Notes: generated by a model from the sequence alone, not told the origin. Shown: positions 914-62,336, numbered from the stretch's first letter. The stretch: DNA of 64,000 nt from Planctomycetota bacterium (GCA_030616775.1 JAUWWQ010000003.1:10794-74793), one strand, 5' to 3'. Numbers and translations: made by a program.

Positions 914-940
914 GAGCCGCGAGCTTTAGCCCGCGCGGAG
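914..940 (+). repeat. 27-nt GC-rich palindromic element, variant copy (GAGCCGCGAGCTTTAGCCCGCGCGGAG)
   Basis: Read directly from the sequence. It differs at 3 of 27 positions from the copy at 58954-58980. Intergenic, just after the PrpD-like stop. Confidence 0.6.
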
Positions 941-1042: not shown

Positions 1043-2263
1043 ATGACCAGTATGACACAATCGAGGATGCAAACCGCCGAGGCCGGTCGGCGCGGCGAGG
1101 ATGTGCGATCGGACTGTTGGGTGAAGGTGACCCTGACCGGTTCGGGCGGGATCGAGGTCGACTTGAAGAGCAAGGTCAATTCGCTGTACGGTGAATCGAC
1201 TCGCCGACTTGTACGCAGCGAGCTTGACGCCCTGGGCGTTAAGAACGGCAAGATCGAGATCGAGGACGGCGGAGCGTTGCCGTTCGTAATATTGGCTAGG
1301 GTGGAGACGGCCGTAAGGCGCCTCGGCCTTGATGTCGCCGAAGGGTACATTCCCGATTTCGCTCCGGGGACGGAATACGGGACCGAGCGCGACCGATTCA
1401 GACGCTCGCGCCTGTACCTTCCCGGTAATGAGGCGAGGTTCATGCTCAACGCCGGCCTGCACAAACCGGACGGGATCATTCTCGATCTGGAGGACGGCGT
1501 GGCCCCGCCGGAGAAGGACGCCGCACGCCTTGTGGTGCGTAATGCACTGCGGAGCATCAATTTCCACGGGGCAGAGCGGATGGTTCGGATCAATCAGGGT
1601 GAGCGGGGCCTTGAGGATCTGGAATTCGTCGCCCCACACAACCTTCATGTGGTGCTTATCCCCAAGGTGGAAGCGCCCGAGCAGGTCAAGCGCGTCGACC
1701 GGAAAATCCGAGAACTGCTGTCGGCCCGAAAGATCGATCGGCCGGTTTATCTGATGCCCATCGTCGAGAGCGGCCTCGGTGCCATACGGGCATACGAGAT
1801 AGCCAGTGCGACAGACAGTATTGTGGCACTCACGATCGGACTCGAGGATTATACGGCTGACATCGGTGCAGCCAGAACCAAAAAGGGGCGCGAGAGCTTC
1901 TGGGCCCGGTCGCAGGTGGTCAATGCGGCCCGGGCGGCGGGCGTTCAGCCCATCGACACCGTTTTTTCCGACGTGGCTGATATGGAGGGGCTGCGCGACA
2001 GTGTACTTGAAGCTAAAGGACTGGGATTCGACGGTAAGGGTTGCATCCATCCGCGCCAGATCGCCGTCATTCATGAAGCCTTTGCACCCACGGAAGAAGA
2101 ACTCGCCAAGGCCAAACGGATTGTCGAGGCTTTCGAGGATGCGGAGCGTCGCGGCCTCGGCGTCGTCTCTTTGGGCAGCAAGATGATCGATCCACCGGTC
2201 GTGAAGCGGGCGCAGCGGGTTGTTTGGCTGGCTGAGGCGATGCAGCGTGCCACTGCTCTGTGA
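1043..2263 (+). CDS. Fusion of a citrate lyase acyl-carrier (CitD-like) domain to citrate lyase beta / citryl-CoA lyase (CitE, HpcH/HpaI fold)
   Basis: The N-terminal ~95 aa resemble CitD (GSGGIEVDLKSKV..LYGES). The remainder has CitE hallmarks (RSRLYLPGN, ILDLEDGVAP, GFDGKGCIHPRQI). Start choice is uncertain (three in-frame ATG in the first 9 codons). Confidence 0.8.
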   Translation: MTSMTQSRMQTAEAGRRGEDVRSDCWVKVTLTGSGGIEVDLKSKVNSLYGESTRRLVRSELDALGVKNGKIEIEDGGALPFVILARVETAVRRLGLDVAEGYIPDFAPGTEYGTERDRFRRSRLYLPGNEARFMLNAGLHKPDGIILDLEDGVAPPEKDAARLVVRNALRSINFHGAERMVRINQGERGLEDLEFVAPHNLHVVLIPKVEAPEQVKRVDRKIRELLSARKIDRPVYLMPIVESGLGAIRAYEIASATDSIVALTIGLEDYTADIGAARTKKGRESFWARSQVVNAARAAGVQPIDTVFSDVADMEGLRDSVLEAKGLGFDGKGCIHPRQIAVIHEAFAPTEEELAKAKRIVEAFEDAERRGLGVVSLGSKMIDPPVVKRAQRVVWLAEAMQRATAL

Positions 2264-2310
2264 GCAGTGCCTGTCATCCGGCGTGGTGTGCCAGTGCTCT
2301 GTGAGCAGTC
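2247..2310 (+). repeat. Two tandem REP units (41-nt spacing); the first is a perfect 8-bp stem / 3-nt loop hairpin (CACTGCTC TGT GAGCAGTG), the second is degenerate
   Basis: Read directly. Unit 1 (2247-2270) overlaps the last codons and the TGA stop (2261-2263) of the CitD-CitE ORF. Unit 2 (2288-2310) has two stem mismatches. Confidence 0.8.
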
Positions 2311-2331
2311 CCTGTCGCGGGAAATCTACAC

Positions 2332-2940
2332 ATGCGAAGAACCAGCTCGCCAACGACATACACTGCGGTTCTGGGCACATCCAGGAGCGAGCCTGTTCGG
2401 CGAAAGATACGTAAAGCCTTGGACGAGCCGGGCCATGCCCACTTCCTGACATACTCATGCCTTCGGTGTTGGCCGCTGCTGTCGAGCGATCGTATCCGCC
2501 ATTGGGTGGTGGAGGGGATGGAGGAGACACGTCGGAGGCTCGACGTAGCGCTATGGGCATATGTGATCATGCCGGAGCACGTGCACCTTCTTCTATTCCC
2601 GGAATCGGAGTGCCCGATGCGACGGGTACTGGCTGCCCTCAAACGCGGCGTGTCCAAGCGGGCCCGGAGCTATTTGATCGAAACGGGCCAGCATGACTGG
2701 CTCGAACGGCTGACCATCCGGCACCCTTCACGGACGGTTTTCCGATTCTGGCAGCCGGGCGGTGGCTATGATCACAACATTTGGAAGCAGCGCACACTGC
2801 GCGAGGTTGTCGGCTACATTCATGCGAATCCCGTGCGGCGAGGATTGGTCGAGTCGCCGGAGGACTGGTATTGGTCCAGTGCGAGGTTCTGGACGGGTGA
2901 GAAGAGCGTTCCGATTGCGATGGATCCAGTTGATGTGTAA
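2332..2940 (+). CDS. REP-associated tyrosine transposase (RAYT, IS200/IS605 TnpA-like Y1 HUH enzyme)
   Basis: HUH motif in MPEHVHLLLF and a catalytic-Tyr region YIHANPVRRGLV. Size is 202 aa. Flanked by inverted REPs. Confidence 0.85.
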   Translation: MRRTSSPTTYTAVLGTSRSEPVRRKIRKALDEPGHAHFLTYSCLRCWPLLSSDRIRHWVVEGMEETRRRLDVALWAYVIMPEHVHLLLFPESECPMRRVLAALKRGVSKRARSYLIETGQHDWLERLTIRHPSRTVFRFWQPGGGYDHNIWKQRTLREVVGYIHANPVRRGLVESPEDWYWSSARFWTGEKSVPIAMDPVDV

Positions 2941-2987
2941 GATGCTCGTGCGTAAATGGATGGCCGTTCGGCTGCAGATGCACAGAA

Positions 2988-3011
2988 GCACTGCTCACAG
3001 AGCAGTGGCAC
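2988..3011 (-). repeat. REP hairpin, inverted copy (GCACTGCTCACAGAGCAGTGGCAC)
   Basis: Exact reverse complement of 2247-2270. Confidence 0.85.
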
Positions 3012-3040
3012 CCGCGTGGGCTTGCGATATGCTGGCAGAC

Positions 3041-3065
3041 CACGGACTGGTTTTGCCAGTCCGTG
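3041..3065. other. Perfect 10-bp stem hairpin (CACGGACTGG TTTTG CCAGTCCGTG) between the RAYT unit and citF
   Basis: Read directly. No U-tract follows, so its function is unknown. Confidence 0.5.
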
Positions 3066-3113
3066 CCACCCTGATGACAGTATAAAAGTAAGCCCTGGAG
3101 ATAGGAAACCGCA

Positions 3114-4673
3114 ATGGCAGTGAGACTTACCGAAAACGCCCTCGGCCGGATGGTTCCAAGCGAGATCAATGGACACCGGGCGACGCCGTTTGTGGGTGTT
3201 GGCAAGTATCGGCCCGAAGGGAGCAAGACAGCGCCACCTATTCGGAGTTGCGCCAATTATCCTGGAGACGGGAATAAGGTTGTGCCCGATCTGGCGACGG
3301 CGCTGAAAAATGCCGGAGTCCGGGACGGGATGACCATTTCGTCGCATCACCATTTCCGCAATGGCGACAAAACGGCTAACGCGGTGTTTGATGCAGCGGC
3401 TTCGCTGGGGGTGAAGGATTTGCGGTGGTTCCCCAGTGCCTCCTTTCCGTGTCACGCGCCGATCATCGACCATCTGGAAAGCCGAGTGGTTCATCATATC
3501 GAGGGTAGCATGAACGGCCCGTTGGGCGAGTATTGCTCGGTGGGCAAGATGCGCGGGATGGGTGTGCTCCGATCGCATGGCGGGCGCTGGCAGGCGGTAC
3601 AAGACGGCGAGGTGCACATCGACATCGCCGTGATCGCCGCCCCGACCGCGGATCCCTTCGGTAATGCCAACGGGGTGACAGGTCCTTCGGCGTGTGGTCT
3701 GCTGGGCTTCGCCCTGGTCGATTCGATCTACGCCGACCACGTCATCGTGGTAACCGACAACCTGATCGACTTTCCCTGCATCCCCTGGCAAATCCAGGGC
3801 AACAACGTGGATCAGGTGGTAGTGATGGATTCGATCGGCGATCCAGCGAAGATCGTCTCCGGGACGACGGTCCTGACCAAGAGTCCCGATCGACTGCTGA
3901 TTGCCGAATACACCGCCCGATTCATCCGCGACGTGGGGATTATGAAGGATGGATTTTCCTTCCAGGCCGGCGCCGGGGGCACGGCACTGGCGTTTGCCAT
4001 CTTCCTTAAGGAGATGATGAAGGAGGCCGGCGTCAAGGCCCGATTCATTCGCGGCGGGAGCACCAGGTACCTTGTGGAAATGCTCGAGGAGGGGCTGACG
4101 GACTACATTCTCGACGGGCAGACATTCGATCTGGAGGGCGTTCGCTCCATGCGCGAAAACCCTCATCATCAGGACACCAGCCCGTTTACCAGCTACAACT
4201 TTCACGGCAAGGGTTGTTTTGCGTCGATGCTGGACGCCACCATCCTGGGGGCCACCGAGGTGGACGTCGATTTCAATGCCAATGTGGTGACACATTCCGA
4301 CGGGCGGCTGCTGCACGGCATCGGCGGCTGGCAGAACTGTCTGGCCGGCCGTTGCGTGATCTTGCCGATCCCCTCGGTACGCGACCGCATCCCGGTCGTC
4401 GTCGAGCGGGTGACCACGCTTTGTGGACCCGGAGAGCTGATCGACGTTATCATCACCGAGCGGGGCATCGCGATCAATCCGCGGCGCAGTGATCTGATCG
4501 ACGCCGTCAAAGGGTCTGACCTGCCCATTCGTCCGATCCAGGATATCAAGGCCGAGGTCGAGGCTATGTGCGGCGGACCGCCGGCTCCACCAAAGCTCGG
4601 TGACAAGATCGTGGCTGCGGTCAAGTGGGTTGACGGCACGGTAATCGACTGCGTGCGGCAGGTTGAGCAATAA
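3114..4673 (+). CDS. citF: Citrate lyase alpha subunit / citrate CoA-transferase
   Basis: 519 aa with CitF-like sequence throughout (SSHHHFRNGD, IAVIAAPTADPFGNANG, HGIGGWQN). Confidence 0.85.
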   Translation: MAVRLTENALGRMVPSEINGHRATPFVGVGKYRPEGSKTAPPIRSCANYPGDGNKVVPDLATALKNAGVRDGMTISSHHHFRNGDKTANAVFDAAASLGVKDLRWFPSASFPCHAPIIDHLESRVVHHIEGSMNGPLGEYCSVGKMRGMGVLRSHGGRWQAVQDGEVHIDIAVIAAPTADPFGNANGVTGPSACGLLGFALVDSIYADHVIVVTDNLIDFPCIPWQIQGNNVDQVVVMDSIGDPAKIVSGTTVLTKSPDRLLIAEYTARFIRDVGIMKDGFSFQAGAGGTALAFAIFLKEMMKEAGVKARFIRGGSTRYLVEMLEEGLTDYILDGQTFDLEGVRSMRENPHHQDTSPFTSYNFHGKGCFASMLDATILGATEVDVDFNANVVTHSDGRLLHGIGGWQNCLAGRCVILPIPSVRDRIPVVVERVTTLCGPGELIDVIITERGIAINPRRSDLIDAVKGSDLPIRPIQDIKAEVEAMCGGPPAPPKLGDKIVAAVKWVDGTVIDCVRQVEQ

Positions 4674-4703: not shown

Positions 4704-5540
4704 ATGCGTTCTCTTTGCTTTGGCTCGTTTGCAGTGCTTCTGGTTTCCACTGCCGCTGCCGGGCCGATCGAGCTGCAGATTGATCCAACTCAGTCCACGG
4801 CCGATGTGGAACTATGTCTCACGATTATTTCCACAGTGTGCGATACCGATACCACTCCCGTGGCTGGGTCCGTGACCGTATCGCTGGATTGCCCGATTGC
4901 GCCGGGCGATATCAGTCTGCATGATTTCGTGTTTCAGCTCGCTGAGAACGTCGAATTGAATCTGAGTTTCGGCATTGGCGACTTCGACAGTATCGGATAT
5001 GACGTCGAGGTAACCTACGCCGATCCCGGCAACCCCCTCCCGCCGGTGGTGGTGACCGACAATGCGTTTGCCTTCACCAATGTCCCTGCGCAGGTAACCG
5101 GGCTTCTGGAATATGAAGCGACCAGGACGGTATGCACCATCTTCGAGTCGCTTGGATACGGGTGCATCAGCGAGATTGATCTTAGCACGATCCTGTTGGA
5201 TCCCCTGGATATGGACGGGACAATCACTATTTCCGGTAATGACGTGACTGTGACGCTTGACACCATCATATCAGGGCCGATCGATCCGAAACGCCCTGAA
5301 ACCGGGGTATTCACCTTAGATGCGACCATGCTGGCCAGAGGTACTGCTGGGCCAGTTTGGCCCGGTGACCTGACCGGTGATGATCGCGTTGATCTTGACG
5401 ACCACGGGCGTTTTGTCGGTTGCCTGGCCGGCCCGGGAACGGCCGCGATCGGCGCGTGCCAATGTGCCGATCTTGACGAAGATGACGACGTCGACCTTGA
5501 AGACTTTGCGGGTTTTCAAGTTGCCTTCGAGGGTTCGTAG
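4704..5540 (+). CDS. Secreted protein with a C-terminal dockerin-like / EF-hand-like Asp-rich repeat
   Basis: N-terminal signal peptide (MRSLCFGSFAVLLVSTAAAG). The C-terminus reads GDLTGDDRVDLDDHGRF...DLDEDDDVDLEDFAGFQVAF. Confidence 0.6.
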   Translation: MRSLCFGSFAVLLVSTAAAGPIELQIDPTQSTADVELCLTIISTVCDTDTTPVAGSVTVSLDCPIAPGDISLHDFVFQLAENVELNLSFGIGDFDSIGYDVEVTYADPGNPLPPVVVTDNAFAFTNVPAQVTGLLEYEATRTVCTIFESLGYGCISEIDLSTILLDPLDMDGTITISGNDVTVTLDTIISGPIDPKRPETGVFTLDATMLARGTAGPVWPGDLTGDDRVDLDDHGRFVGCLAGPGTAAIGACQCADLDEDDDVDLEDFAGFQVAFEGS

Positions 5541-5627: not shown

Positions 5628-7157
5628 CTATCCCTTTCCGCGCAGCTTGGCCAACCGTTTCTCAACCAGCCTCACCACGAGGTTGGGGTCGGCTTTGCCA
5701 CCAGAGAGTTTCATGACCTGGCCGCGGAGGAAGCCGGCTGCGGCCTGGGCTTTCTTGGGATTGCCGAGTGCGTCTTGGACGGCCTTGGGGTTGGCGGTAA
5801 AGGCCTGTTCGACCCAGGCTTCGGTGGCGGCTGTGTCGTGGACCTGGACGAGCCCCAGTTCTTGCGCGAGATGGAGCGGTGAGGGAGTGGAGCGTTGGGC
5901 GTCCGCGCGGGCTGAAGCCCGCGGCTCGGCGTGCTGGAGCATGACCTGTGCCAAGCGGTTGGCAGCAGTTTTGTTAATGGTACCGTCAGCGGTCATCCTG
6001 GCCAGCTCGACAATCTGTTCGGGCTCAACGCCGAGGTCCGTTACGTGAACATTTCGATCATTGGCAAGCTTGAGCCAGACATTGACAAACTGTTTGCCGG
6101 CAACGTCAGCAGGTGCGCCGGCTGCAATCACTTTCTCGAGCAGGTCGGCGGTTCCACGATGGTTGACGATTGTGTCAGCATCCCTGGTCGATAAGCCATA
6201 CTCGCTGACCAAGCGCTGACGCCGGGCGATCGGTAGCTCAGGCAGCATCGCGCGAATCTCGTCCAGCATCCCATCAGTAATCTCGACGGGTACCAGATCG
6301 GGATCGGGGAAATAACGGTAGTCCGGGGCGCTCTCTTTGTCTCGTTGATACTCGGTGATGCCCTTCTCGGCGTTCCAGCCCCGGTTTTCGTTTGGCCGCT
6401 TGTCCTGCTGATAGTCGTGATCTTCCGTCCAGGCGGTGAGCTGACGCCGGGCTTCATAGGCGATGGCATCGCGCACGTGCCGGAAGCTGTTGAGGTTCTT
6501 GATTTCGGTGATTGGCGTGCGGTACTCCCGACCGTCGCAGCGGATCGCGATGTTCACGTTGGGCTCGAACCGCATTTGCCCCTTTTGCATGACGCCTTCG
6601 CTGACGCCGAGATAGGTCACCAGCCGTTGCAGCTCGATGCAGAACGCATACGCCTCATCGGCGGACGAGAGGTCCGGCTCGGTGACGATCTCCAGAAGCG
6701 GCGTACCGGCCCGGTTGAGATCGACAAGCGTGCACCCGGGCAGATCGTGAAGGCTCTTGCCGGCGTCCTCCTCGAGGTGGGCGCGGGTTATTCGGACGCG
6801 CTTCATTCGCCCCCGCACGGGAATATCGAAGAATCCGCGGGCGGCCAGCGGCAGATCGTATTGGCTGATCTGGTAGTTTTTCGGGAGGTCGGGATAGTAA
6901 TAGCTCTTCCGGTCCCATTTGGTGTGGCGTGCGATCTTGCAGTTCAGTGCCAGGCCGGTCAAGACCGCATGGGTGAAAGCCTGACGATTGATGACCGGCA
7001 ACGCCCCCGGATGCCCCAGGCAAACCGGGCAGACGCAGGAGTTCGGAGGGGCGTCGTACCTGACGGGGCAGCCGCAGAACATTTTCGTCTTGGTGTTAAG
7101 CTGAACGTGGATTTCCAAGCCGATGATCGTACGGATTGTTAACGTCGGTTCAGGCAT
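5628..7157 (-). CDS. gatB: Asp-tRNA(Asn)/Glu-tRNA(Gln) amidotransferase subunit B
   Basis: 509 aa with GatB motifs (GLEIHVQLNTKTKMFCGC, RFEPNVN, GFLRGQVMK tail). Confidence 0.95.
   Translation of the reverse strand: MPEPTLTIRTIIGLEIHVQLNTKTKMFCGCPVRYDAPPNSCVCPVCLGHPGALPVINRQAFTHAVLTGLALNCKIARHTKWDRKSYYYPDLPKNYQISQYDLPLAARGFFDIPVRGRMKRVRITRAHLEEDAGKSLHDLPGCTLVDLNRAGTPLLEIVTEPDLSSADEAYAFCIELQRLVTYLGVSEGVMQKGQMRFEPNVNIAIRCDGREYRTPITEIKNLNSFRHVRDAIAYEARRQLTAWTEDHDYQQDKRPNENRGWNAEKGITEYQRDKESAPDYRYFPDPDLVPVEITDGMLDEIRAMLPELPIARRQRLVSEYGLSTRDADTIVNHRGTADLLEKVIAAGAPADVAGKQFVNVWLKLANDRNVHVTDLGVEPEQIVELARMTADGTINKTAANRLAQVMLQHAEPRASARADAQRSTPSPLHLAQELGLVQVHDTAATEAWVEQAFTANPKAVQDALGNPKKAQAAAGFLRGQVMKLSGGKADPNLVVRLVEKRLAKLRGKG
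5901..5927 (-). repeat. 27-nt palindromic element copy inside the gatB coding sequence, in frame (EPRASARAD)
   Basis: The reverse complement is 27/27 identical to 58954-58980. Codon phase was checked against the gatB start at 7157. Confidence 0.85.
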
Positions 7158-32301: not shown

Positions 32302-33466
32302 GCATAGCGTCTTCGACGACCGCGGCGTGGAAACGCTCGAGGTTGGGGGGTTCGATTCGGGCCTTGCTGCGGAGCTGGGCGACTTGCTCGACGACGAGGC
32401 GGTTGTAGGACTCGATGAGGACACGCTCTTTGAGCCGTGGTTGAAGGGTTTGAAAGTCCGGCTCGTGGCCGGGGTCGATCTGGTCGCAACGCACCAGAAA
32501 GAATCCATCATCCGTTTCGATGATGTTGCTGACCGAACCTGCGTCCAAGCTGTGTAACGCCTCAACAGCAGGTTCAAATCGTTCGCGTACACTTCCTTTA
32601 GTAACCCAGCCCCAGGATCCGCCTTCATCGGCATGAAGCCCGTCCGAGTAGCGGCGAGCGACCTCGGCGAAGTCGACGCCGCTATCCAGTTCGGCCCGGG
32701 CGGTTTGAATGCGTGAGCGGGCCTGCATACGGGCGCTCTCGAACTGATCACGTGTCGGAGAGCCGGCATCTTTTCCAGCGCGATCGCGCAGGCGGACGTC
32801 AATCAACGACATGCGCCGTCGGGCCGGCCGGCGGAATGAATCGGCATTGGCCTCGAAGGCGGCGAGCAGCTCGGCCCGGGTCGGCTCGGCCACCTTCGGC
32901 TTGACCTCCTGTTCAAGGTAACTGGTAATGATGATCTCACGGCGGACCTTTTCGCGCGCGTCTTTAAGTGTGCGTCCCTGTGACTCCAACTGTCTCTCGT
33001 AGCGCCGTGGAACACCGTCGTGCTCGGTGGTTATTATCTTGCGGATCTGTGCGTCAACGTACGTGTCGACTTTGGCGCTCATCTCAGGTGAGAATCGCAG
33101 AGAGGCCTGCTGATACAAAAGCATTTCCGCAATCTTGTCAGTGATCAACCGGGCCGCTCGACGGTCGAGATAGGTTCGATAATCCTCGGGAGCAAGAGTC
33201 TTGGCTTTGGTCGACAGCTCGTCATGGAGGCCCAGCCAAAGCTCATGTGCCTCGACGGTCTCGGCATTGACGGTAAGGCGACTGACAGCGAAAGTCCCCG
33301 CGGCGTCGTGATAAGCGGGTGAAGGATTCGAGCGTGACTGCGTAGGCGGCGATGTAGTAATGCGATCGGGGTTGGATTGCACCGGGACCATGCACGCTGT
33401 GTTCCAGATGCATAATGCACCTGTGGCCAAGGCGCCCCGCACAATCCGCCGAAGAGAGTCTTTCAC
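32285..33466 (-). CDS. SurA/PpiD-like periplasmic chaperone with a parvulin-type PPIase domain
   Basis: Signal-like N-terminus. Parvulin region FAEVARRYSDG...GGSWGWVTKG...FFLVRC. Confidence 0.75.
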   Translation of the reverse strand: MKDSLRRIVRGALATGALCIWNTACMVPVQSNPDRITTSPPTQSRSNPSPAYHDAAGTFAVSRLTVNAETVEAHELWLGLHDELSTKAKTLAPEDYRTYLDRRAARLITDKIAEMLLYQQASLRFSPEMSAKVDTYVDAQIRKIITTEHDGVPRRYERQLESQGRTLKDAREKVRREIIITSYLEQEVKPKVAEPTRAELLAAFEANADSFRRPARRRMSLIDVRLRDRAGKDAGSPTRDQFESARMQARSRIQTARAELDSGVDFAEVARRYSDGLHADEGGSWGWVTKGSVRERFEPAVEALHSLDAGSVSNIIETDDGFFLVRCDQIDPGHEPDFQTLQPRLKERVLIESYNRLVVEQVAQLRSKARIEPPNLERFHAAVVEDAMHRIAN

Positions 33467-36400
33467 GTCACTGCCTCCACACGTGATCCGGCTCTGACAA
33501 ACATTTGCCGTAATATCGGTAACAGGGTCACCGGTTCAAGACAGTCGGGCGGGAGCCGCAGGTGAATCGTCTTGGGGTCCGGCATACGCACGCTTCCCGG
33601 GGCGTCGGTGAAAAGGGGCTCAGCCGTGGGCAAATCGTCAATCAGGAAGACCACGTCCGGCGGCCTCAGGCTGATCGACTGTATCCCGAAGCGACGCCCG
33701 TACACGCGGATTTCCGCCAGCTCCAGCAGCCGTTGCACCTCCTTGGGGAACGGGCCGAACGCGTCTATCAGGTCCCGCTCGAGCTGGGCCAGATCGGCTT
33801 CGGTCCGACAGGCCACGATCCGGCGGTATATTTCGATCCGTGATCGATCCGCGGTGATATAGTGTGGCGGGATATGGGCGGCCACGTCAAGGTCCACGTG
33901 AACCGGCGGAGGCGTCGGATCGGGTTCACTCTTCAAGCGACAGACGGTCTGTTGGAGTAGGCGGCAGTACATCTCATAGCCAACCGCTGCGATGTGCCCG
34001 CTCTGCTCCCGCCCCAGGAGGTTGCCCGCCCCACGGATTTCCAGATCGCGCATGGCAATCCGGAATCCGGCGCCCAGTTCGCTAAACTCCTCGATCGTCT
34101 TTAGCCGTTTAGCGGCTTTGCTGGTGGGGGGATGATCGGGCGAGAGCAGCAAATAGCAATAGGCTCGATGGCTCGATCGTCCCACACGACCACGGAGCTG
34201 GTGGAGATCGGCCAGTCCGAACCGCTCAGCGCGGTGGATAAAGATCGTGTTGACGGTGGGAATGTCGATACCGCTTTCGATGATAGTGGTGGTCACGAGC
34301 ACGTCGGCCTTGCGGCGCACGAACTGGTGCATGACCGATTCCAGCTCGCCGTCTTTCATTTGGCCGTGGGCGTAGACCACCTTTGCTTCCGGTACGATCT
34401 GACGGATTTTGTCGGTCATGCCCGCGATGGAGCGGACGAAGTTGTGTACGAAGTAGACCTGCCCGTCCCGGTTCAGCTCACGGAGGATGGCGTTGCGGAT
34501 CAGATCCCGATTGAACGGACCCACCTGTGTGGCGATGGCCCGGCGGTCCACGGGCGGTGTCTGCAGCGAGCTGATGTCGCGGACGCCCATAAGTGACATG
34601 TGCAACGTTCGGGGGATCGGTGTGGCGGTCAGCGTCAGTACGTCAACGGTTTCGCGCATGGCTTTCAGTCGCTCCTTGTGCTCCACGCCGAAACGCTGCT
34701 CTTCGTCGATAACCACCAGGCCCAGGTTGGCAATGGATACGTCCTTGCTAAGAAGCCGATGGGTGCCGATGACGATGTCCACCTGCCCCTTCTTGAGCTG
34801 CGCGACAAGCTTCTTTTGCTCGGATGGGCTGCGAAACCGCGACAGGCATCCGACTACGAAGGGGTACTCGGCCATGCGCTCTCGGAACGTGGCGTAATGC
34901 TGCTCGGCCAGCACGGTCGTGGGGACCAGGAGGGCGACCTGCTTCCCATATTCGACAATCTTGAAGGCCGCTCGCATGGCCAGTTCCGTCTTGCCGTAAC
35001 CGACGTCGCCGCAGACCAGGCGATCCATCGGACGCGGTCGCACCAGATCCTCGCGGATATCCTTGGCGACAAGCAACTGATCTTCGGTCTCTTCATAAGG
35101 GAATGCGGCCTCGAACTCGCGCTGCCACTCGGTGTCAGTCGGATAGGGCGTACCGGCCGCCTCATCCCGGATCGCTTGTACGTGGAGGAGCGATTCGGCG
35201 AGCTCCGAGACGGCGTCAGCGACCTGTCGCTTGCTCTTGCTCCAACGTTTGCCGCCGACTTTGGACAGCTCCGGCCGCCGGCCCCCGGCGCCGATGTATT
35301 TTTGCACCAGGTCTATCTGCGAACACGGGACGTAGATCATGGCTTTGTCGGCGAATTCCAGAGCGAGGAATTCTTCCCGCTGACGTGACGTTCCCTTGCG
35401 TATCTTCTTTAGCCCGCGATAGATCGCGATCCCGTGCATCACATGCACGACCAGTTCACCGGGCATAAGATCCAGCCAGGACTCCAGAGGTCGACCGGCA
35501 TGAAGTCGTCGGACGCGCCGTCGCTGCCGATGGCGGTGGAAGATTTCGGAATGCGGGATGACCAGCGTCCCGGTCGCAGTCCACTCGAAACCTCGATGCA
35601 GGACGCCGATGCCGGTGTGAATCGACTCGGCAAGGTCGGGTGCCTGCTCCGAGACCATCTCGATCAGCCGCTGGCGCTCCCCCTCGGCGTCGCAGATCAC
35701 ATGCACCTCATGGTCGCAGGCGACACGGCAGAGCTCCGCGACGGCATCGGTCGCATTACTCTCAAATCGGGACACGGACGTGACACCCATGTCGAACTCG
35801 TCTTCGTCTTTGGCAGTCGCCGATCCGAATGACGACAGATAAAGCTGCGGGAATCGGCCTGTTCGTGCCAGCACCTCGGTCACGTCGTAGATGCGGTCCG
35901 ACGCTCCCAGACGCGCTTGAAGTATTTCGCCCATGGTCTGGATTTCACCCGGCCCATCGAGAATGATCAGGGTGTCAGATGGCAGGTAGGCGGTCAGATC
36001 CGTGACCGCCGCGCTGTCCACCCCTTGATCGCCGGGCAAGGCCACAACGGACAGCGAAGTCAGCGTCTCGATGGAACGCTGAGTGCTGGCATCAAAACGC
36101 CGGATCGATTCAACCTCATCGCCGAAGAACTGAATGCGAACGGGGTCTGTTTCACCCGGCGCGAACAGATCGACAATATCGCCGCGCTGGGCCACATCGC
36201 CGGGCGATTCCACGAGTTCAAGCCGCTGGAAGCCGCGGTTTATGGCCCACGCGACGATCGACTCCGGCGATCGGGCAGCGGGGCAATCCCCGCCTGTGCC
36301 CCTGACAACCTGCAGCGTGTGGTGTCCAAGCGCCTCTGGATCGGGTACGGGCTGCATGAGAGCCTGAATCGGCGCGACAATCAGGGTTGCAGGTGAGCAA

Positions 36401-36759
36401 GCGGTCGGATCTCCGCGCAGGCTAGAGCCTGCGGCTCCCTGAAGACGGCTGCACAGGTGAAGCCGCTCGGCCTCGATCTCACCGCTGGCCGCACCCTCAC
36501 CGGGCAACGTCTCCCAGGCTGGGAACAGCTCGCATGACCGGCCCAGGAAGAGCTCCAGGTCGTCGCGGGCGTCGTCGGCTTGTTCCAGGTGGGCGGTTAT
36601 GTACAGGTGGGTCCGCTTGCGGGCGGCTGCGACCAGAGCGGCCACCATAGGCGCAGACGATCCCCACACGCCCGAAACATGAACCACCCCGGTCGAACCG
36701 GAAAGCCGTTCATTAAGGCGCTTCACCCGAGGATCGGAGGCGATCGATGGGATCACCAT
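33463..36759 (-). CDS. mfd: Transcription-repair coupling factor
   Basis: 1098 aa. UvrB-homology N-terminus, CarD/RID domain, DEAD/H helicase motifs (GDVGYGKTE, VIDEEQRFG), TRG motif and C-terminal D7. Confidence 0.97.
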   Translation of the reverse strand: MVIPSIASDPRVKRLNERLSGSTGVVHVSGVWGSSAPMVAALVAAARKRTHLYITAHLEQADDARDDLELFLGRSCELFPAWETLPGEGAASGEIEAERLHLCSRLQGAAGSSLRGDPTACSPATLIVAPIQALMQPVPDPEALGHHTLQVVRGTGGDCPAARSPESIVAWAINRGFQRLELVESPGDVAQRGDIVDLFAPGETDPVRIQFFGDEVESIRRFDASTQRSIETLTSLSVVALPGDQGVDSAAVTDLTAYLPSDTLIILDGPGEIQTMGEILQARLGASDRIYDVTEVLARTGRFPQLYLSSFGSATAKDEDEFDMGVTSVSRFESNATDAVAELCRVACDHEVHVICDAEGERQRLIEMVSEQAPDLAESIHTGIGVLHRGFEWTATGTLVIPHSEIFHRHRQRRRVRRLHAGRPLESWLDLMPGELVVHVMHGIAIYRGLKKIRKGTSRQREEFLALEFADKAMIYVPCSQIDLVQKYIGAGGRRPELSKVGGKRWSKSKRQVADAVSELAESLLHVQAIRDEAAGTPYPTDTEWQREFEAAFPYEETEDQLLVAKDIREDLVRPRPMDRLVCGDVGYGKTELAMRAAFKIVEYGKQVALLVPTTVLAEQHYATFRERMAEYPFVVGCLSRFRSPSEQKKLVAQLKKGQVDIVIGTHRLLSKDVSIANLGLVVIDEEQRFGVEHKERLKAMRETVDVLTLTATPIPRTLHMSLMGVRDISSLQTPPVDRRAIATQVGPFNRDLIRNAILRELNRDGQVYFVHNFVRSIAGMTDKIRQIVPEAKVVYAHGQMKDGELESVMHQFVRRKADVLVTTTIIESGIDIPTVNTIFIHRAERFGLADLHQLRGRVGRSSHRAYCYLLLSPDHPPTSKAAKRLKTIEEFSELGAGFRIAMRDLEIRGAGNLLGREQSGHIAAVGYEMYCRLLQQTVCRLKSEPDPTPPPVHVDLDVAAHIPPHYITADRSRIEIYRRIVACRTEADLAQLERDLIDAFGPFPKEVQRLLELAEIRVYGRRFGIQSISLRPPDVVFLIDDLPTAEPLFTDAPGSVRMPDPKTIHLRLPPDCLEPVTLLPILRQMFVRAGSRVEAVT
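36411..36437 (-). repeat. 27-nt palindromic element copy inside the mfd coding sequence, in frame (AAGSSLRG)
   Basis: CTCCGCGCAGGCTAGAGCCTGCGGCTC matches the intergenic copy at 60061-60087 at 24/27 positions. Confidence 0.65.
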
Positions 36760-56034: not shown

Positions 56035-57597
56035 ATGGAGGTCACACTCGACGGGAACTCGCTATCGATCGAACAGATTCATTCAGTGGCTCGCCGTGGG
56101 GCCAAGGTGTTGGTGTCCCCGGAAGCCCGGGCGAATGTCCAACGCTCCCGTGACGTTGTCGAGCGATGCGTAGCGGCTGGGACCGCTGTCTATGGCGTTA
56201 CCACCGGCATCGGGGAGTTCGCCCGCATCCGCATCTCGCTCGAGCAATGCGCCGAATTGCAGCGACGAATCGTTTACAGCCACTCAGCGGGCACGGGTGA
56301 TCCGCAGCCCAAAGATGTGGTTCGGGCGGCCATGCTGTGCCGGGCCAACACTCTGGCTAAGGGTTACTCCGGTGTGCGTCTTTGTTTGTTGGACACCGTG
56401 ATCGACATGATCAACAAGGGCGTGGTCCCCTACATCAACGAAAAGGGTTCGTTGGGGACCAGTGGTGACCTCTCGCCGCTTTCGCAATTCGCCGAGGTGG
56501 CCATCGGCGAGGGGCGGGCCTATTACAGGGGCGAACTGATGCCGGGCGGGGAGGCGATGAAGCGGGCCGGCATCAAGCCCACCGATCTGACCTATAAGGA
56601 GGGCCTCGGCCTGATCAACGGCTCGCAGATGATGACCGGCGGGGCGGCACTTTTGATCTATGATGCCGAGCGCATCCTCAAGAACGCCATGATTGCCAGC
56701 GCTATGACACTGGATGCCCTTCGCGCCGTCGCCCGGGCGTTCGATCCGCTGGTTCATCGCGTTCGACCTTTCCCAGGGCAGAATGCGGTAGCCGGCAATC
56801 TGCTACGCCTGATCGCCAACAGCGAGGTGATGGCCCATCGAACGGGGCGCGTTCAGGACGGCTATAGCATTCGTTGCACGCCGCAGATCATGGGTGCATC
56901 GCTTGATACTCTGGAACACGTCCGCAGGATCATCAATATCGAGGTCAACGCCGCAGCGGATAATCCCCTCTTTTTTGGGGAAGAGGACGAATACTTCGCC
57001 GCGGGCAACTTCCACGGGCAGGGGATCGGGATGGTCGTCGACTTTCTATGCATCGCCATGTCGGAGGTGGCCAACCTTTCCGAGCGGCACACCAACCGGT
57101 TACTAAACCCGGTGCTCTCCGGCTTGCCCGACTTTCTTGTGGAAGGTAAAGGGCTCAACTCCGGTCTGATGGTGTCGCAATACACGGCTGCGGCGCTGGT
57201 CTCGGAGAATAAGGTGCTGTCTCATCCCGCCTCGGTTGACTCGATCAGCGTATCGGCTGATCAGGAGGATCATGTCAGCATGGGGCCGATCGCGGTACGC
57301 AAGTGCACCGAGATCCTCAAGAACGTCCGGACGGTGTTGGCGATCGAGATGATGTCGGCCGCGCAGGCGTTCGAGTTCCATGAGGGTCGTCGGCCCGGCA
57401 AGGGAACCGCCACTGCGTACGACCTGATCCGCTCGAAGGTACCCAAGCTGGTGGACGACCGGGTGCTCTACCCGGACATCGAGGACATCCGTCAAATGGT
57501 CGAGGATTGCAGCATCTTAGATGCGGTGGAGAAGGAGATCGGGCCGCTCAACCTGGCCCGCGACATGGAACTACCCCGGCCGAACGTCCCGGCGTAG
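56035..57597 (+). CDS. hutH: Histidine ammonia-lyase family enzyme (MIO-dependent aromatic amino acid lyase/aminomutase family)
   Basis: 520 aa. MIO region GSLGTSGDLSPLS, SH pair in VYSHSAG, and QEDHVSMG. The symbol is tentative because the MIO triad is TSG and no other hut genes are adjacent. Confidence 0.8.
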   Translation: MEVTLDGNSLSIEQIHSVARRGAKVLVSPEARANVQRSRDVVERCVAAGTAVYGVTTGIGEFARIRISLEQCAELQRRIVYSHSAGTGDPQPKDVVRAAMLCRANTLAKGYSGVRLCLLDTVIDMINKGVVPYINEKGSLGTSGDLSPLSQFAEVAIGEGRAYYRGELMPGGEAMKRAGIKPTDLTYKEGLGLINGSQMMTGGAALLIYDAERILKNAMIASAMTLDALRAVARAFDPLVHRVRPFPGQNAVAGNLLRLIANSEVMAHRTGRVQDGYSIRCTPQIMGASLDTLEHVRRIINIEVNAAADNPLFFGEEDEYFAAGNFHGQGIGMVVDFLCIAMSEVANLSERHTNRLLNPVLSGLPDFLVEGKGLNSGLMVSQYTAAALVSENKVLSHPASVDSISVSADQEDHVSMGPIAVRKCTEILKNVRTVLAIEMMSAAQAFEFHEGRRPGKGTATAYDLIRSKVPKLVDDRVLYPDIEDIRQMVEDCSILDAVEKEIGPLNLARDMELPRPNVPA

Positions 57598-57730
57598 GGG
57601 CGGCAGTAGGGCAGAGTCTGGCGCAGCCAGGCTGTGGGCGCGCTTGCCGTCGACAAGTTTCACCAAACCTGGGTGCCATGTTATTGTCGTGGACGTGCCG
57701 GCAATTACCCAGGCGATTTGGACCTTCAAG

Positions 57731-58945
57731 GTGAAAGCAATCGCAGTTGTCGGTGCTGGGACGATGGGGGCGGGGGTTGCACAACTGGCGGCTACGCATG
57801 GCTGCATCGTCTACCTGAATGATATCGATGGCGAGGTGATTCAGCGCGGGATCGACGGCATCGTCGCTCGCCTGGAGCGCTCGGTCGACAAGGGTAGGCT
57901 GAAGCGCCGCGATCGGGATGCCATTTTGGGCCGCATCAAGCCCGCGGACGCAATTTGCGACCTGAGCGACGTCGATCTAGCGGTCGAGGCGGTTGTCGAG
58001 GACCTTGCTGTCAAACAGGAGGTGTTCGCCACGCTCGAAGAGGGCCTTTCGGCGTCGGCTGTCTTGGCCACTAACACCTCGTCCCTATCCATCACCCGGA
58101 TTGCGGAAGCAGTCAAGAACCCATCCCGCGTGGTTGGCATGCATTTTTTCAATCCCGCACCGGTCATGCCGCTTGTAGAGGTCATCGCCGGGCGTGCCAG
58201 TGACGAAGCATCCGTCGATTTCGCGTGCAAAGTGGCGGAAGGTTGGGGTAAGGTCCCTGTGCGGGCAAAGGACACGCCGGGGTTCATCGTGAACCGTGTG
58301 GCCCGCGGCTTCTATCTGGAGGCGCTTCGACTCCGCAGCGAGGGTGTGGCCGGTGTTGATGAAATCGACGCGGTGATGCGCACGCACGGCAAATTCAAGA
58401 TGGGGCCGTTCGAGCTGATGGACCTGATCGGTCTCGACGTGAACCTGGCGGTCAGCACATCGATCTGGGAGCAAACGGGCAAGCCTGCTCGGTTCAGGGT
58501 GCACGAGATGCAACAGCAGCTCGTCGACCAGGGTCATCTGGGCCGCAAGTCGGGTCGAGGTTTTTACCTGCATGACGGCGAGACGCCCCTGCCGGCCGTT
58601 GCAGTTGATCGGCGCAGCTACGAGCTTTCACCGCTGCTCTCCGATGCCATGTTGGCGTTTTCGGCCAGGGCCGGGGCCGCACAGACATCCAGCACCGAGC
58701 GGTACGTTTTCTGCCGGATTCTCAGTGCGGTCATCAACGAAGCCGGTTTGCTCTTTTCGGACAACGTAGCCACTCGCAAGGATATCGACATCGCCATGGT
58801 CAAGGGCGCCAATTACCCGAAGGGTCCGCTGGCCTGGGCGGATGACATCGGCCATCGCACGGTGCGCGGCCTGCTCAAAGGCTTGAACAGCACCGTGTCC
58901 GACGGGCGTTATGAGCCGGCCCCGCTGTTTGCCGACGCACAGTGA
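57731..58945 (+). CDS. 3-hydroxyacyl-CoA / 3-hydroxybutyryl-CoA dehydrogenase (PaaH-like, extended C-terminus)
   Basis: Rossmann motif IAVVGAGTMGAGVA and NTSSLSI, with duplicated C-terminal helical domains. The GTG start at 57731 is a guess; the ORF is open from 57521. Confidence 0.8.
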   Translation: MKAIAVVGAGTMGAGVAQLAATHGCIVYLNDIDGEVIQRGIDGIVARLERSVDKGRLKRRDRDAILGRIKPADAICDLSDVDLAVEAVVEDLAVKQEVFATLEEGLSASAVLATNTSSLSITRIAEAVKNPSRVVGMHFFNPAPVMPLVEVIAGRASDEASVDFACKVAEGWGKVPVRAKDTPGFIVNRVARGFYLEALRLRSEGVAGVDEIDAVMRTHGKFKMGPFELMDLIGLDVNLAVSTSIWEQTGKPARFRVHEMQQQLVDQGHLGRKSGRGFYLHDGETPLPAVAVDRRSYELSPLLSDAMLAFSARAGAAQTSSTERYVFCRILSAVINEAGLLFSDNVATRKDIDIAMVKGANYPKGPLAWADDIGHRTVRGLLKGLNSTVSDGRYEPAPLFADAQ

Positions 58946-58953
58946 CTCCCCCG

Positions 58954-58980
58954 AGCCGCGGGCTTCAGCCCGCGCGGACA
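58954..58980 (+). repeat. 27-nt palindromic element, reference copy GAGCCGCGGGCTTCAGCCCGCGCGGAC
   Basis: 7-bp stem CGCGGGC/GCCCGCG with loop TTCA. It starts 9 nt after the dehydrogenase stop. Confidence 0.85.
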
Positions 58981-60060: not shown

Positions 60061-60087
60061 GTCCGCGCAGGCTGAAGCCTGCGGCTC
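60061..60087 (-). repeat. 27-nt palindromic element, inverted copy with a compensatory stem change (GTCCGCGCAGGCTGAAGCCTGCGGCTC)
   Basis: Relative to 58954-58980, one G-C pair becomes A-T through changes on both arms. Confidence 0.85.
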
Positions 60088-60215
60088 AGGGCGGCGCGTA
60101 GTGGTGAATTATAGCTGGACTCGCCATAACCCCCCGTGAGCGTCGCAGACGGTTGAAGACTCACAGGTCCGCCTTGACGGCGGACCCATGCCACCCGACG
60201 CGTGAAGAACGACCT

Positions 60216-62336
60216 ATGAACATCCGATCCGCCCGGGCAAACTGTGTTGAGCTTGTGACGCTTGGTGCTATTCTGCTGCTCTTTGCGGTGGTTTCTGTAG
60301 TCGGCATCACGTGGGGTTTGCCGAGTCGGACAATCGACAAGTATCTCTTCGGCGATGATCCGCCGTGGCCGGGGGAGAAGATCTATCGGCTGGCCGGGGC
60401 CGCGGAGAAGTTCTCGCCCGATCGCGGGGCCGATGTCGATGCCGATCCGCTGGATAGATCAGGGGACGACCCCGTCCTGCTGACTGAGACCGAAGAGGAC
60501 ATTGCCAAGATCTATCTTCGCTATCGGCTGTACACCTATCAGCCTGACGAGATGATCACGATGATGGCCCTGGCGGGGATGAAGCCACGCAGGCTTGAAC
60601 TCGACCCCAGGCTCTATCAGTACGGCGGCCTGTTCATTTACCCGGTGGGGGCGCTGATCGGGGCGTGTGGTTCTGTCGGCTTGATCGACGTGCGCAGCGA
60701 CATCGTCTACTACCTCGACAACCCGGATGAGTTCGGCAAGTTCTACATGGTCGCCCGGGCATACTCGGCCGTTTGGGGACTCGTTGGTGTGGTGATCGTC
60801 TTTGCCATCGCCAGACGATTGAGCGGCCTGCGAGCCGGGCTCCTTGCGGGGCTGTTGTTTACGCTCATGCCGGTTGTCGTCTGCATGGCCCACGAGGGCA
60901 AGCCGCACCTGCCCGGGGCGGTCCTTATGCTGACGGCCGTGCTGTTCGCAATGCGGTATCTCGATTATGCCACCTCGCGCAACTGGTGGCTGATGTGCAT
61001 CTGTTGCGGGGCGGCGCTGGGGATGGTGTTGTCGTCCTGGCCGATCTTTGTGTTGATTCCGTTGATCGCATGGCTGGAAACACGAGGCACGAAGGGCGGC
61101 ACCCCGCGCGGAGTCACAAACGCTGAGCAATCGCCACTCCCGCACGTTAGTCCGCGTGGGCTCCCGATAGATCGGGATTCCATTCCGCCCGCGGCTCGGA
61201 ACGGAAACGCAGGCGTCCTTGGCGTTGGGATCAAGCGAACCGTCGGTGGGGTCGTCATCGGGGCGCTCGTGTACTCTATCACGAACCCGTACATCTTGAT
61301 TAACGCGTTCGTCAATCGCGAGGTGCTGAGCAGCAATTTCGGCAACTCGCTGGCCATGTACGAGATTTCCCGGATCGGCGAGGGATTTATTCGCGTGCTC
61401 GAATTGACCGTCGAGGGTGCGACACTGCCGATAGTGGCTCTCGGGGCAGTTGCACTTTTCGTTTCGTGTCTCCGAATGGGTGGCGCGGGTAAACGTAGCT
61501 TGGACGTGGTTGGTGGTTACGCAAACCGGGGCGAGCAGGTTGACGATCGGCATACCGGCGCTTCGCTTGGGCTCGGCACCCGGCATGACACCCGGTATGA
61601 CACCCGAAAGAAAAACGCGTTGATCATTCCACTGGTGGTTCCTGCGGCCGTGCTCTTCCTGCAGTTCGTGCTGATCGGTGCCGGCAAGCCGGCCGAATAT
61701 GGCCGGTTCGGCGTCTTCACCAACACAGCTCTGGCGATCGGCACCGCCTGCCTCCTGGCCCACCGCTGGACGAAACTGCGCGAGATCGTCAACTGGGTCC
61801 CGGCGATATTCGTTCTAATCTGGGTTGCGGGCTTTGGGGCCGCCTACCTGCGCAACTTCTACATCGATTCCACGGGGCAAAACTCCCGGACCTTGCTGGC
61901 GGAAGAGACCACTTGGTTGGAGCTTCGTGATGCCGTGGATTCCAATCTGACGGATTCTGCTGGACTAGCGCCCATCACGGTTCAAAGCGAGCCCGCGCCG
62001 TACTGCTTCCCTCCCCTAGATTTCCGGAAGACCGTTGTGCTTCTCGTGAAGCAACCCGAACCGCCGGCAACCGCGACTTGCAGGCGCCTGTTCCTCCGAA
62101 CGCTTGATCGGCGGACCGGGGCAAGGAGCGGCACATGCCAGGATGATCCGTTCGCCCGGTGCATAAGCAGGTTTGAACGTCCCGAAGCAGAGGCATGGTC
62201 GGACCCAATCGACACACCGATAAGTTGGGCCAATAAGCCTTTCGAGGTCTTGAGCTACGTCACAGTCTACTACGGTAACGAATCCCCCTCACGAATGCAG
62301 GAACCTCCAGAACGCGGGCGGACGCAGCAGCCCTGA
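60216..62336 (+). CDS. Large polytopic membrane protein, GT-C glycosyltransferase-like (ArnT/PMT-like), with low-complexity insertions
   Basis: Many TM segments and an early DE-containing loop (YQPDEMI). Start taken at the ATG at 60216. Confidence 0.45.
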   Translation: MNIRSARANCVELVTLGAILLLFAVVSVVGITWGLPSRTIDKYLFGDDPPWPGEKIYRLAGAAEKFSPDRGADVDADPLDRSGDDPVLLTETEEDIAKIYLRYRLYTYQPDEMITMMALAGMKPRRLELDPRLYQYGGLFIYPVGALIGACGSVGLIDVRSDIVYYLDNPDEFGKFYMVARAYSAVWGLVGVVIVFAIARRLSGLRAGLLAGLLFTLMPVVVCMAHEGKPHLPGAVLMLTAVLFAMRYLDYATSRNWWLMCICCGAALGMVLSSWPIFVLIPLIAWLETRGTKGGTPRGVTNAEQSPLPHVSPRGLPIDRDSIPPAARNGNAGVLGVGIKRTVGGVVIGALVYSITNPYILINAFVNREVLSSNFGNSLAMYEISRIGEGFIRVLELTVEGATLPIVALGAVALFVSCLRMGGAGKRSLDVVGGYANRGEQVDDRHTGASLGLGTRHDTRYDTRKKNALIIPLVVPAAVLFLQFVLIGAGKPAEYGRFGVFTNTALAIGTACLLAHRWTKLREIVNWVPAIFVLIWVAGFGAAYLRNFYIDSTGQNSRTLLAEETTWLELRDAVDSNLTDSAGLAPITVQSEPAPYCFPPLDFRKTVVLLVKQPEPPATATCRRLFLRTLDRRTGARSGTCQDDPFARCISRFERPEAEAWSDPIDTPISWANKPFEVLSYVTVYYGNESPSRMQEPPERGRTQQP
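61150..61197 (-). repeat. Split/expanded copy of the palindromic element inside the glycosyltransferase-like ORF, in frame (SPRGL...PAAR)
   Basis: GTCCGCGTGGGC, then a 25-nt insert containing its own hairpin CCCGAT-AG-ATCGGG, then GCCCGCGGCTC. Confidence 0.55.
61577..61612 (+). repeat. 12-bp tandem repeat (CACCCGGCATGA / CACCCGGTATGA / CACCCGAAAGAA) in coding sequence
   Basis: Read directly. It encodes TRHD-TRYD-TRKK. Confidence 0.7.

Follow-up and report, generated by a model that had tools for sequence, protein, structure and literature searches.

A palindromic repeat read in frame in a planctomycetal gatB belongs to a repetitive extragenic palindromic (REP) family of Phycisphaerae, copies of which bracket a Y1 transposase domain in related loci

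In this work, we characterized a 27-nt palindromic repeat that is read in frame within gatB, in a 64,000-nt stretch (here called the window) of a metagenome-assembled genome (MAG) of a Planctomycetota bacterium with a G+C content of 60%. The repeat is one copy of a REP family of the Phycisphaerae, and its anatomy and distribution are those of REP elements. We hold it to be highly probable that this copy, most likely spread by a Y1 transposase, landed in a permissive linker of GatB and left the gene unbroken. The most interesting aspect is the unusual arrangement of related loci, in which the transposase is nested within host genes. Literature searches on the repeat family, on its peptide and on a REP-associated tyrosine transposase (RAYT) nested in an essential gene returned nothing specific, which is not proof of absence; the family was not found described in the literature searched, and the kind of event is already known.

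A sequence search of the window finds the 27-mer GAGCCGCGGGCTTCAGCCCGCGCGGAC without mismatch on both strands, minus at 5901-5927 and plus at 58953-58979. An earlier note on this DNA had pointed to the same pair; it was right about the identity and about the gatB coordinates, and put the second copy one base off (58954-58980). Its extension of the match to 29 of 29 bases once flanks are included stands, for the arms 5901-5929 and 58951-58979. At three mismatches or fewer the 27-mer has four matches in the window, against 0.00 expected from 100 dinucleotide-preserving shuffles, in line with the note's judgement that the match goes beyond chance. The more diverged copy at 36411-36437(-) brings the total to five REP copies, all of them singletons with none in dimers, and two of the five lie within genes (gatB and mfd). 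In the copy at 60061, the G>A and C>T differences are the two sides of one stem pair. A genome of 60% G+C and a sequence derived from a MAG might invite suspicion of a chance G+C-rich palindrome or of an assembly artefact. We regard this as vanishingly improbable, refuted as it is both by the expectation of zero matches and by separate assemblies from ENA, NCBI and JGI, in which gatB holds this element at an identical position.

Beyond the window, a scan in which each species was represented by a single genome recovered at least 115 loci with the exact 27-mer, distributed over approximately 37 Phycisphaerae/Planctomycetota assemblies (the latter count being a tally of accession prefixes), and the titled matches were all MAGs of Phycisphaerae, Phycisphaerales or Planctomycetota. 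Allowing up to five mismatches, we counted 209 copies in the 115 fetched loci and the window. In the aligned copies conservation is confined to a unit of ~35 nt with unrelated flanks, in which a G+C-rich stem of 7 bp closes a TTCA loop and stands between two constant ends, (C)AGC-GAGCC on the 5′ side and GCGCGGAC(G) on the 3′ side; read on the reverse strand, this unit begins with GTC, and in 42% of copies a C stands before the G. The stems covary: across 103 distinct variants, 94.6% of cells were paired and six of the seven pairs were altered on both sides; double-change cells numbered 53, against 8.9 after shuffling, and none of 500 shuffles reached the observed value. Copy pairs less than 250 nt apart are convergent (+-) or tandem, never divergent (-+), and tandem arrays with periods of 36, 42 and 45 nt are present. 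Of 165 non-coding copies for which an upstream gene could be assigned, 82 are found no more than 100 nt downstream of a stop codon, as judged by a crude gene call based on G+C at third codon positions (GC3); 59 of these point the same way as the gene and 23 the opposite way. The aligned copies have no terminal inverted repeats, no target duplications and nothing conserved beyond the hairpin, which sets them outside the definition of miniature inverted-repeat transposable elements.

The host gene, gatB, is intact and conserved, not decaying. Its product has full-length Pfam matches to GatB_N and GatB_Yqey (355 and 94 bits), aligns with Thermotoga GatB (3AL0_B) at E = 2.8e-117 and gives a confident AlphaFold2 model, with a mean predicted local distance difference test score (pLDDT) of 86 and a predicted template modelling score of 0.81; the decaying paralogue that the earlier note had allowed for is not what is found here. 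Read in phase, as that note had also proposed, the repeat encodes EPRASARAD, residues 411-419 of GatB. The note had further described the linker as longer, by about a dozen residues, than that of Bacillus GatB, and the unusual length was borne out: the linker has 22 residues in the window GatB and eight in approximately 100 of 120 homologues, with 19-47 residues in approximately 21. Relative to the solved GatB structures 3AL0_B and 3H0L_B, residues ~410-423 form an insertion of ~14 residues, and in the model residues 414-420 (pLDDT <50) are coil between helices 396-409 and 427-433. Because of this low-pLDDT coil between helices, together with the insertion relative to solved structures, the element is predicted to sit in a flexible linker that leads from the helical domain of GatB to its C-terminal tail domain.

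Orthologues place the insertion in a wider context. We built a neighbour-joining tree of GatB with the linker masked (distance-based and without support values). The clade of the window GatB holds P0002-P0009 and P0020, of which P0002-P0006, P0008 and P0020 have the expanded linker and P0007 and P0009 are unexpanded (8 and 11 residues). Elsewhere, element-derived linkers are found in P0030, P0042 and P0055. Because the sister sequences of these three keep the 8-residue form, the tree points to one shared insertion in the window clade and, at this linker in other lineages, to two or three separate gains at the least. As for lineage specificity, which the earlier note had wished to see settled by such an alignment, the insert extends beyond this genome: members of its clade share it, and other lineages appear to have gained it independently at the same linker. 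Where a genome has EPRASARAD in its GatB, it has the repeat at other loci too; the assembly of P0003 (JBARRC01), for example, also supplies the repeat loci L024, L029, L034 and L040.

The window GatB (P0001) has no exact database record, and its cluster mate P0159 from CP070827.1 took its place. CP070827.1, the closest complete genome (a Phycisphaerales MAG), has a gatB with 89.6% nucleotide identity in a syntenic gene order. Its element (L202 11231-11277) has the same arms, and the TTCA loop is swapped for 25 nt (+21 nt net), giving EPRAEWNLDLSGARAD and keeping the frame. This long loop contains a small nested hairpin, TCGATCTATCGGGA-like. The long-loop form recurs in P0002 and in P0020, where a canonical copy follows the long-loop copy (L116, L120); if the arms of such a tandem pair recombined with each other, either loop form would result. 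We considered the long-loop form as a widespread dispersed subfamily and rejected this, as in our sample it occurs only in gatB orthologues. Two further observations concern the loops of GatB. In P0003 (L117) the linker holds a second, different hairpin, GGCACCGGTTTTCAACCGGTGGAG, read as GTGFQPVE and placed directly after the REP, and P0004 and P0006 have a separate insertion of 15-20 residues in the helical domain (alignment A2, columns 434-455). Other hairpin families may be expanding GatB loops too.

At the nucleotide level the element is strikingly constant. It is at consensus with 0-2 changes in the window, P0003, P0004, P0005, P0020 and P0030, and codons for the same residue are identical between orthologues at 6-9 of 6-9 positions within the element, versus 46-58% gene-wide, so that synonymous sites are nearly invariant in the element and near saturation over gatB as a whole. 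EPQASACA, a variant of the peptide, is what the compensatory stem variant CAG...TGC encodes. Codon identity and this origin of the variant peptide therefore point to a constraint on nucleotides and not on the peptide. Such invariance would also be expected if the gatB copy were kept for a job at the nucleic-acid level, for instance as an mRNA hairpin that slows translation between domains or stabilizes the message; stem covariation and the clustering of intergenic copies just past stop codons, mostly in sense, fit this as well, and it matches the view that REPs often act as RNA elements (Di Nocera et al. 2013, PMC3733652). We nevertheless find it quite unlikely, as most GatB orthologues do without the insert, P0007 of the same clade among them, and as G.T and A.C stem mismatches are equally common (12 vs 16), giving no sign of wobble tolerance on one transcribed strand. 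A strand-specific RNA constraint was rejected on the latter ground. No T-run follows the hairpin at any window copy examined, fold energies are no better than those of shuffles, and a scan of the whole window returned no Rfam family at gathering score; the first two of these led us to reject an intrinsic terminator too.

Copies inside other genes show that gatB is not a singular case. At least 28 of the 209 copies lie in frame within long coding frames of recognizable proteins, as assigned by the GC3 heuristic. Eighteen of them use the EPRASARAD frame, five SARAEARGS, three PRGLKPAA and two AAGFSPRG, with none in the fifth open frame; the sixth contains a TGA. The host proteins, identified by eye from translations and without Pfam, are IleS (two loci), AlaS (two loci, same site), ValS, NuoL, PurL, HypF, a UvrA-like protein, an ABC transporter and, in the window, GatB and Mfd. 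Bacterial genomes consist mostly of coding DNA, and with a coding share of only ~13% the copies are strongly depleted within genes. This is most naturally read as the work of selection, which would filter out all but the in-frame, hydrophilic inserts that fall in permissive loops. In a UvrA-like ORF of 2100 aa in L026 (QZJT01000032.1, ~2490-4400), seven in-frame copies are found, including dimers; they form two tandem-plus-inverted groups, read SEPRASARAES ... SARAEARGS. In AlaS from two genomes (L021 and L034), REP-derived inserts occupy one site, between Y.GTLP and DV.YRV, with two copies in one genome and four in the other, the inserts including tandem 45-nt units and one inverted copy. AlaS is a second example, after GatB, of a recurrently used linker.

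The dominance of one frame among the intragenic copies (18 of 28) and the recurrence of its peptide in many proteins could suggest that EPRASARAD is a motif selected at the protein level, such as a binding or modification site. This we consider hardly credible, given that most copies are non-coding, that four reading frames over both strands are used, and that codons, not residues alone, are conserved. The R-to-Q and R-to-C changes of EPQASACA are, moreover, the two sides of a single compensatory stem change, and the sites that host the peptide are disordered loops of unrelated proteins. In a peptide census of the protein database, a 42-aa triple repeat had no match at E ≤ 10.

A candidate for the enzyme that mobilizes the family came from L081, a locus of the 27-mer scan. 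There, within a ValS frame, a Y1 segment (4778-5442) lies between an element copy (+) and an exact copy (-). Its domain passes the Pfam Y1_Tnp cut-off (29.7 bits, cut-off 23) and fails that of the NCBIfam RAYT model NF047646 (36.4 bits, cut-off 80), and its database homologues are stand-alone proteins with ~40% identity, named RayT by JGI. The clade has the conserved motifs TTYGTWLPGD, NHxH, WWTxSGS and YV..Q. A metagenome scan with the L081 Y1 returned 79 loci, and in all 13 of its closest relatives (L123-L135, 48-67% identity) the Y1 is preceded at 30-130 nt by + copies of the element and followed at 20-75 nt by - copies. The stems of these flanking copies covary around constant GAGCC, TTCA and GCGCGGA, and in L131 the exact 27-mer stands on both sides of the Y1. 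Because this REP-transposase-REP layout, that of a REPtron, recurs in 13 of 13 relatives, we name this Y1 clade as the likely mobilizer of the REP family.

Alternatively, the hairpin family could spread and stay uniform without any transposase, by recombination, gene conversion or replication slippage, the link to the Y1 clade being incidental. The tandem arrays of 36-, 42- and 45-nt period fit recombination or slippage, and the in-frame change of the gatB loop from TTCA to 25 nt in CP070827.1 is most simply obtained by arm recombination in a tandem pair like that of P0020. Recombination alone, however, does not explain new insertions at unrelated loci, and inverted copies at fixed short distances around all 13 closest Y1 relatives are the defining layout of a REPtron, so that we think this alternative rather unlikely. 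A mobile or recombining hairpin that had entered an ORF without breaking it was what the earlier note had envisaged, and this picture holds for a dispersed family that is found between genes, in frame in unrelated genes and, in related loci, at the flanks of a Y1/HUH transposase.

In 19 of the 79 loci, comprising all those at least 44% identical to the L081 Y1, the domain is nested in a frame that continues without a stop for hundreds of codons in either direction; of the remaining loci, 52 hold more distant homologues as free-standing ORFs and eight are unclassifiable. Pfam searches on six of the nested frames identified the split hosts as ValS, PurH and MmeI-like restriction-modification enzymes. 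ValS is the host in at least 11 loci, including L081, with the insert at one fixed site (flanked by ...SDQWFVKT and GLAQAA...), and in valS and purH the nested Y1 is bracketed by inverted copies of the 27-mer REP family. Independently called database proteins have the same construction: P0227 is a complete ValRS of 1477 aa that includes the C-terminal arm and a nested Y1_Tnp, P0233 is an 814-aa PurH with nested Y1, and P0212 is a 1311-aa MmeI-like enzyme with nested Y1. Across nine ValS loci, the insert is 47-62% identical in most pairs (89% in the closest pair), a level similar to that of the downstream ValS (54-70%). The inserts in ValS retain the HUH and Tyr motifs. No description of Y1 nesting in host genes was found in the literature searched, which does not prove that it is undescribed. 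We see an even chance that the mobilizing Y1 persists not as a free gene, but as an in-frame, REP-bracketed insertion domain of essential or long host genes. If true, this would be a REPtron sheltered in an essential gene, an intein-like lifestyle without splicing, and it would explain the ease with which hairpins of this family come to lie in frame in GatB and other housekeeping proteins.

In the mechanism that we infer as most likely for the gatB copy, the REP, like others of its kind, spreads as single-stranded DNA, with a dedicated RAYT-type tyrosine transposase, a Y1 (HUH) enzyme, doing the cutting and rejoining. This transposase would recognize the hairpin and its unpaired ends, and the enzyme that acted in this genome would be of that kind. 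One copy, or an ancestral tandem pair, would have landed in the GatB linker between the helical and the C-terminal YqeY-like tail domains. With a length that is a multiple of three, a stop-free frame and a hydrophilic, disorder-prone peptide placed at a surface linker, the insert would have been tolerated, so that essential gatB survived and the insert was inherited. Selection would purge most intragenic insertions, which is why the survivors would be concentrated where long housekeeping proteins have permissive loops, with a preference for the EPRASARAD frame. The sequence identity of the gatB copy might be maintained at consensus by recent replacement by, or recombination with, other copies, or else by constraint at the nucleotide level.

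Several points weigh against this account of a REP spread by the Y1 clade. The 64-kb window holds no homologue of the REP-associated Y1 clade, and the RAYT that is present there has a different REP. The insert is common to most of the window clade, which also fits a single old insertion held unchanged by selection, as opposed to recent mobility. We obtained no pair of empty and filled sites at high nucleotide identity from which the insertion boundaries and any target preference could be read. The census of copies is biased, since loci were fetched because they contain the exact 27-mer, and the coding status of copies rests on the GC3 heuristic. Finally, at this G+C content the fold energies of the hairpin do not stand out (z about -0.5 to -0.9).

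Comparison with known systems places the family closest to REP elements, the anatomy and distribution of which have been summarized by Di Nocera et al. (2013, PMC3733652). Like the REP/REPIN-RAYT systems (REPtrons) of Escherichia, Pseudomonas and Stenotrophomonas, it consists of a short imperfect palindrome with constant unpaired ends, is copy-dense (five in 64 kb), lies mostly between genes near gene 3′ ends, forms inverted dimers in one preferred orientation, and has a Y1/HUH transposase gene bracketed by inverted copies (in the 13 relatives and L081; not inside the window). Unlike them, it has GAGCC and GCGCGGAC(G) as constant ends where theirs is GTAG, and its Y1 reaches 36 bits against the NCBIfam RAYT cut-off of 80 and is nested in valS, purH and MmeI-like genes rather than free-standing. 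Intragenic REPs, most numerous in Opitutus terrae and Rickettsia conorii, have been reported in DNA repair genes, uvrA and tRNA synthetases (PMC3733652). These resemble ours (Opitutus terrae, of the Verrucomicrobia, being from the same PVC superphylum) in forming units, dimers and arrays inside known proteins and in recurring in UvrA, aminoacyl-tRNA synthetases and repair factors, and differ in sequence family and host taxon. The bias to one frame and the repeated use of the same linker (GatB, AlaS), which we document here, were not found stated in the portions of PMC3733652 drawn on. The same source describes a superfamily of CGTC-tagged REPs, with a terminal CGTC, an 8-9 bp stem that starts with complementary A/T pairs, a 4-5 nt loop and head-to-head dimers. 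Our unit is no more than a possible member: it has a 4-nt loop and tag-to-tag dimers, the tag in 42% of copies, and a 7-bp all-G/C stem, which has no A/T start.

The earlier note had likened the repeat to Rickettsia palindromic elements, which are in-frame palindromic repeats in many unrelated genes, including essential ones, that add a peptide without destroying the protein (PMC10969869). The likeness is one of in-frame behaviour only and does not extend to the family. The classic Rickettsia families are ~100-150 bp long and Rickettsia-restricted, with no transposase named in the part of PMC10969869 drawn on, whereas the unit here is ~35 nt long, occurs in Phycisphaerae and has an associated Y1 clade. 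For the transposase, the nearest described relatives may be the class 3 TnpA-Y1 proteins, which are found mainly in Planctomycetes, are REPtron-like and have genes with hairpins on their flanks, sometimes in high copy number (Quentin et al. 2018, PMC6006769). Their NHxH, WWT and YV..Q motifs are similar to those of our clade, a likeness that does not establish membership, and most members here differ in how the Y...Q motif is spaced. The CnGA foot reported for class 3 has no obvious match to GAGCC, and nesting in host genes is not mentioned in the portions of that paper drawn on.

These findings bear on annotation. EPRASARAD (SARAEARGS on the other strand) is a 9-residue "ghost" peptide that flags REP-derived segments in Phycisphaerae proteins, and such segments are not to be taken as functional motifs or as alignment signal. 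That the same linkers of essential proteins (GatB, AlaS) appear to have been expanded repeatedly by one mobile hairpin offers a concrete route by which selfish DNA can lengthen linkers and loops. The Y1 nested in valS provides a natural system for studying the persistence of a REP-RAYT pair and the possible activity of a transposase domain inside an essential enzyme.

Table 1. Coordinates of the repeat copies, their host genes and the nested Y1 loci (window positions unless a locus is named)
Feature	Coordinates	Strand	Remarks
gatB, intact, 509 aa, GatB_N + GatB_Yqey	5628..7157	-	Pfam, structure comparison, model
14-codon (42-nt) linker expansion, approximate	5886..5927	-	relative to the usual 8-residue linker; boundaries good to a few codons
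REP copy identical to family consensus	5901..5927	-	in frame in gatB, codons 411-419, EPRASARAD
Exact intergenic REP copy	58953..58979	+	begins 8 nt past the stop of 3-hydroxyacyl-CoA dehydrogenase ORF 57521..58945, co-oriented
Diverged REP copy	914..940	+	3 mismatches, one stem pair broken; begins 6 nt past the stop of a PrpD-like ORF ending at 908
REP copy with compensatory stem change (GCAGGC...GCCTGC)	60061..60087	-	intergenic, upstream of ORF 60153..62336
Diverged REP copy in mfd	36411..36437	-	5 mismatches; stem kept as GCAGGC/GCCTGC; other frame, AAGSSLRG
mfd (transcription-repair coupling factor), second host gene with a copy	33463..36759	-	
Nested Y1 loci	L081 4778-5442; L123-L139; L143-L144		in frame in host genes

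Two further regions of the window touch on the repeats. In the region of its copy, the mfd product is six residues longer than M. smegmatis Mfd. Between the inverted REP copies 58953(+) and 60061(-) lies an ORF of 244 aa (59112-59846) with a G+C content of 54-58% versus ~61%; as a transposase it was rejected, having no Pfam, NCBIfam or PADLOC match and no visible HUH motif.

The window RAYT belongs to a second, separate REPtron at 2247-3011. Its ORF, 2332..2940, scores 90.2 bits with NCBIfam NF047646 (REP_Tyr_transpos; cut-off 80) and is bracketed by a different hairpin, GTGCCACTGCTCTGTGAGCAGTGC, with direct copies at 2247 and 2288 (+) and an inverted copy at 2988-3011. Because of this different bracketing hairpin, and because tblastn with the window RAYT found no homologue in the 115 REP loci, we rejected it as the mobilizer of the 27-mer. 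At the syntenic position CP070827.1 has an ORF of 198 aa with one degenerate GTGCCACTGCTCTGTGAGCAGTGC copy beside it (L202 15222). In the window, the GTGCCACTGCTCTGTGAGCAGTGC copy at 2247 itself provides the last codons (ATAL) and the TGA stop of a citE-like ORF, 1043..2263.

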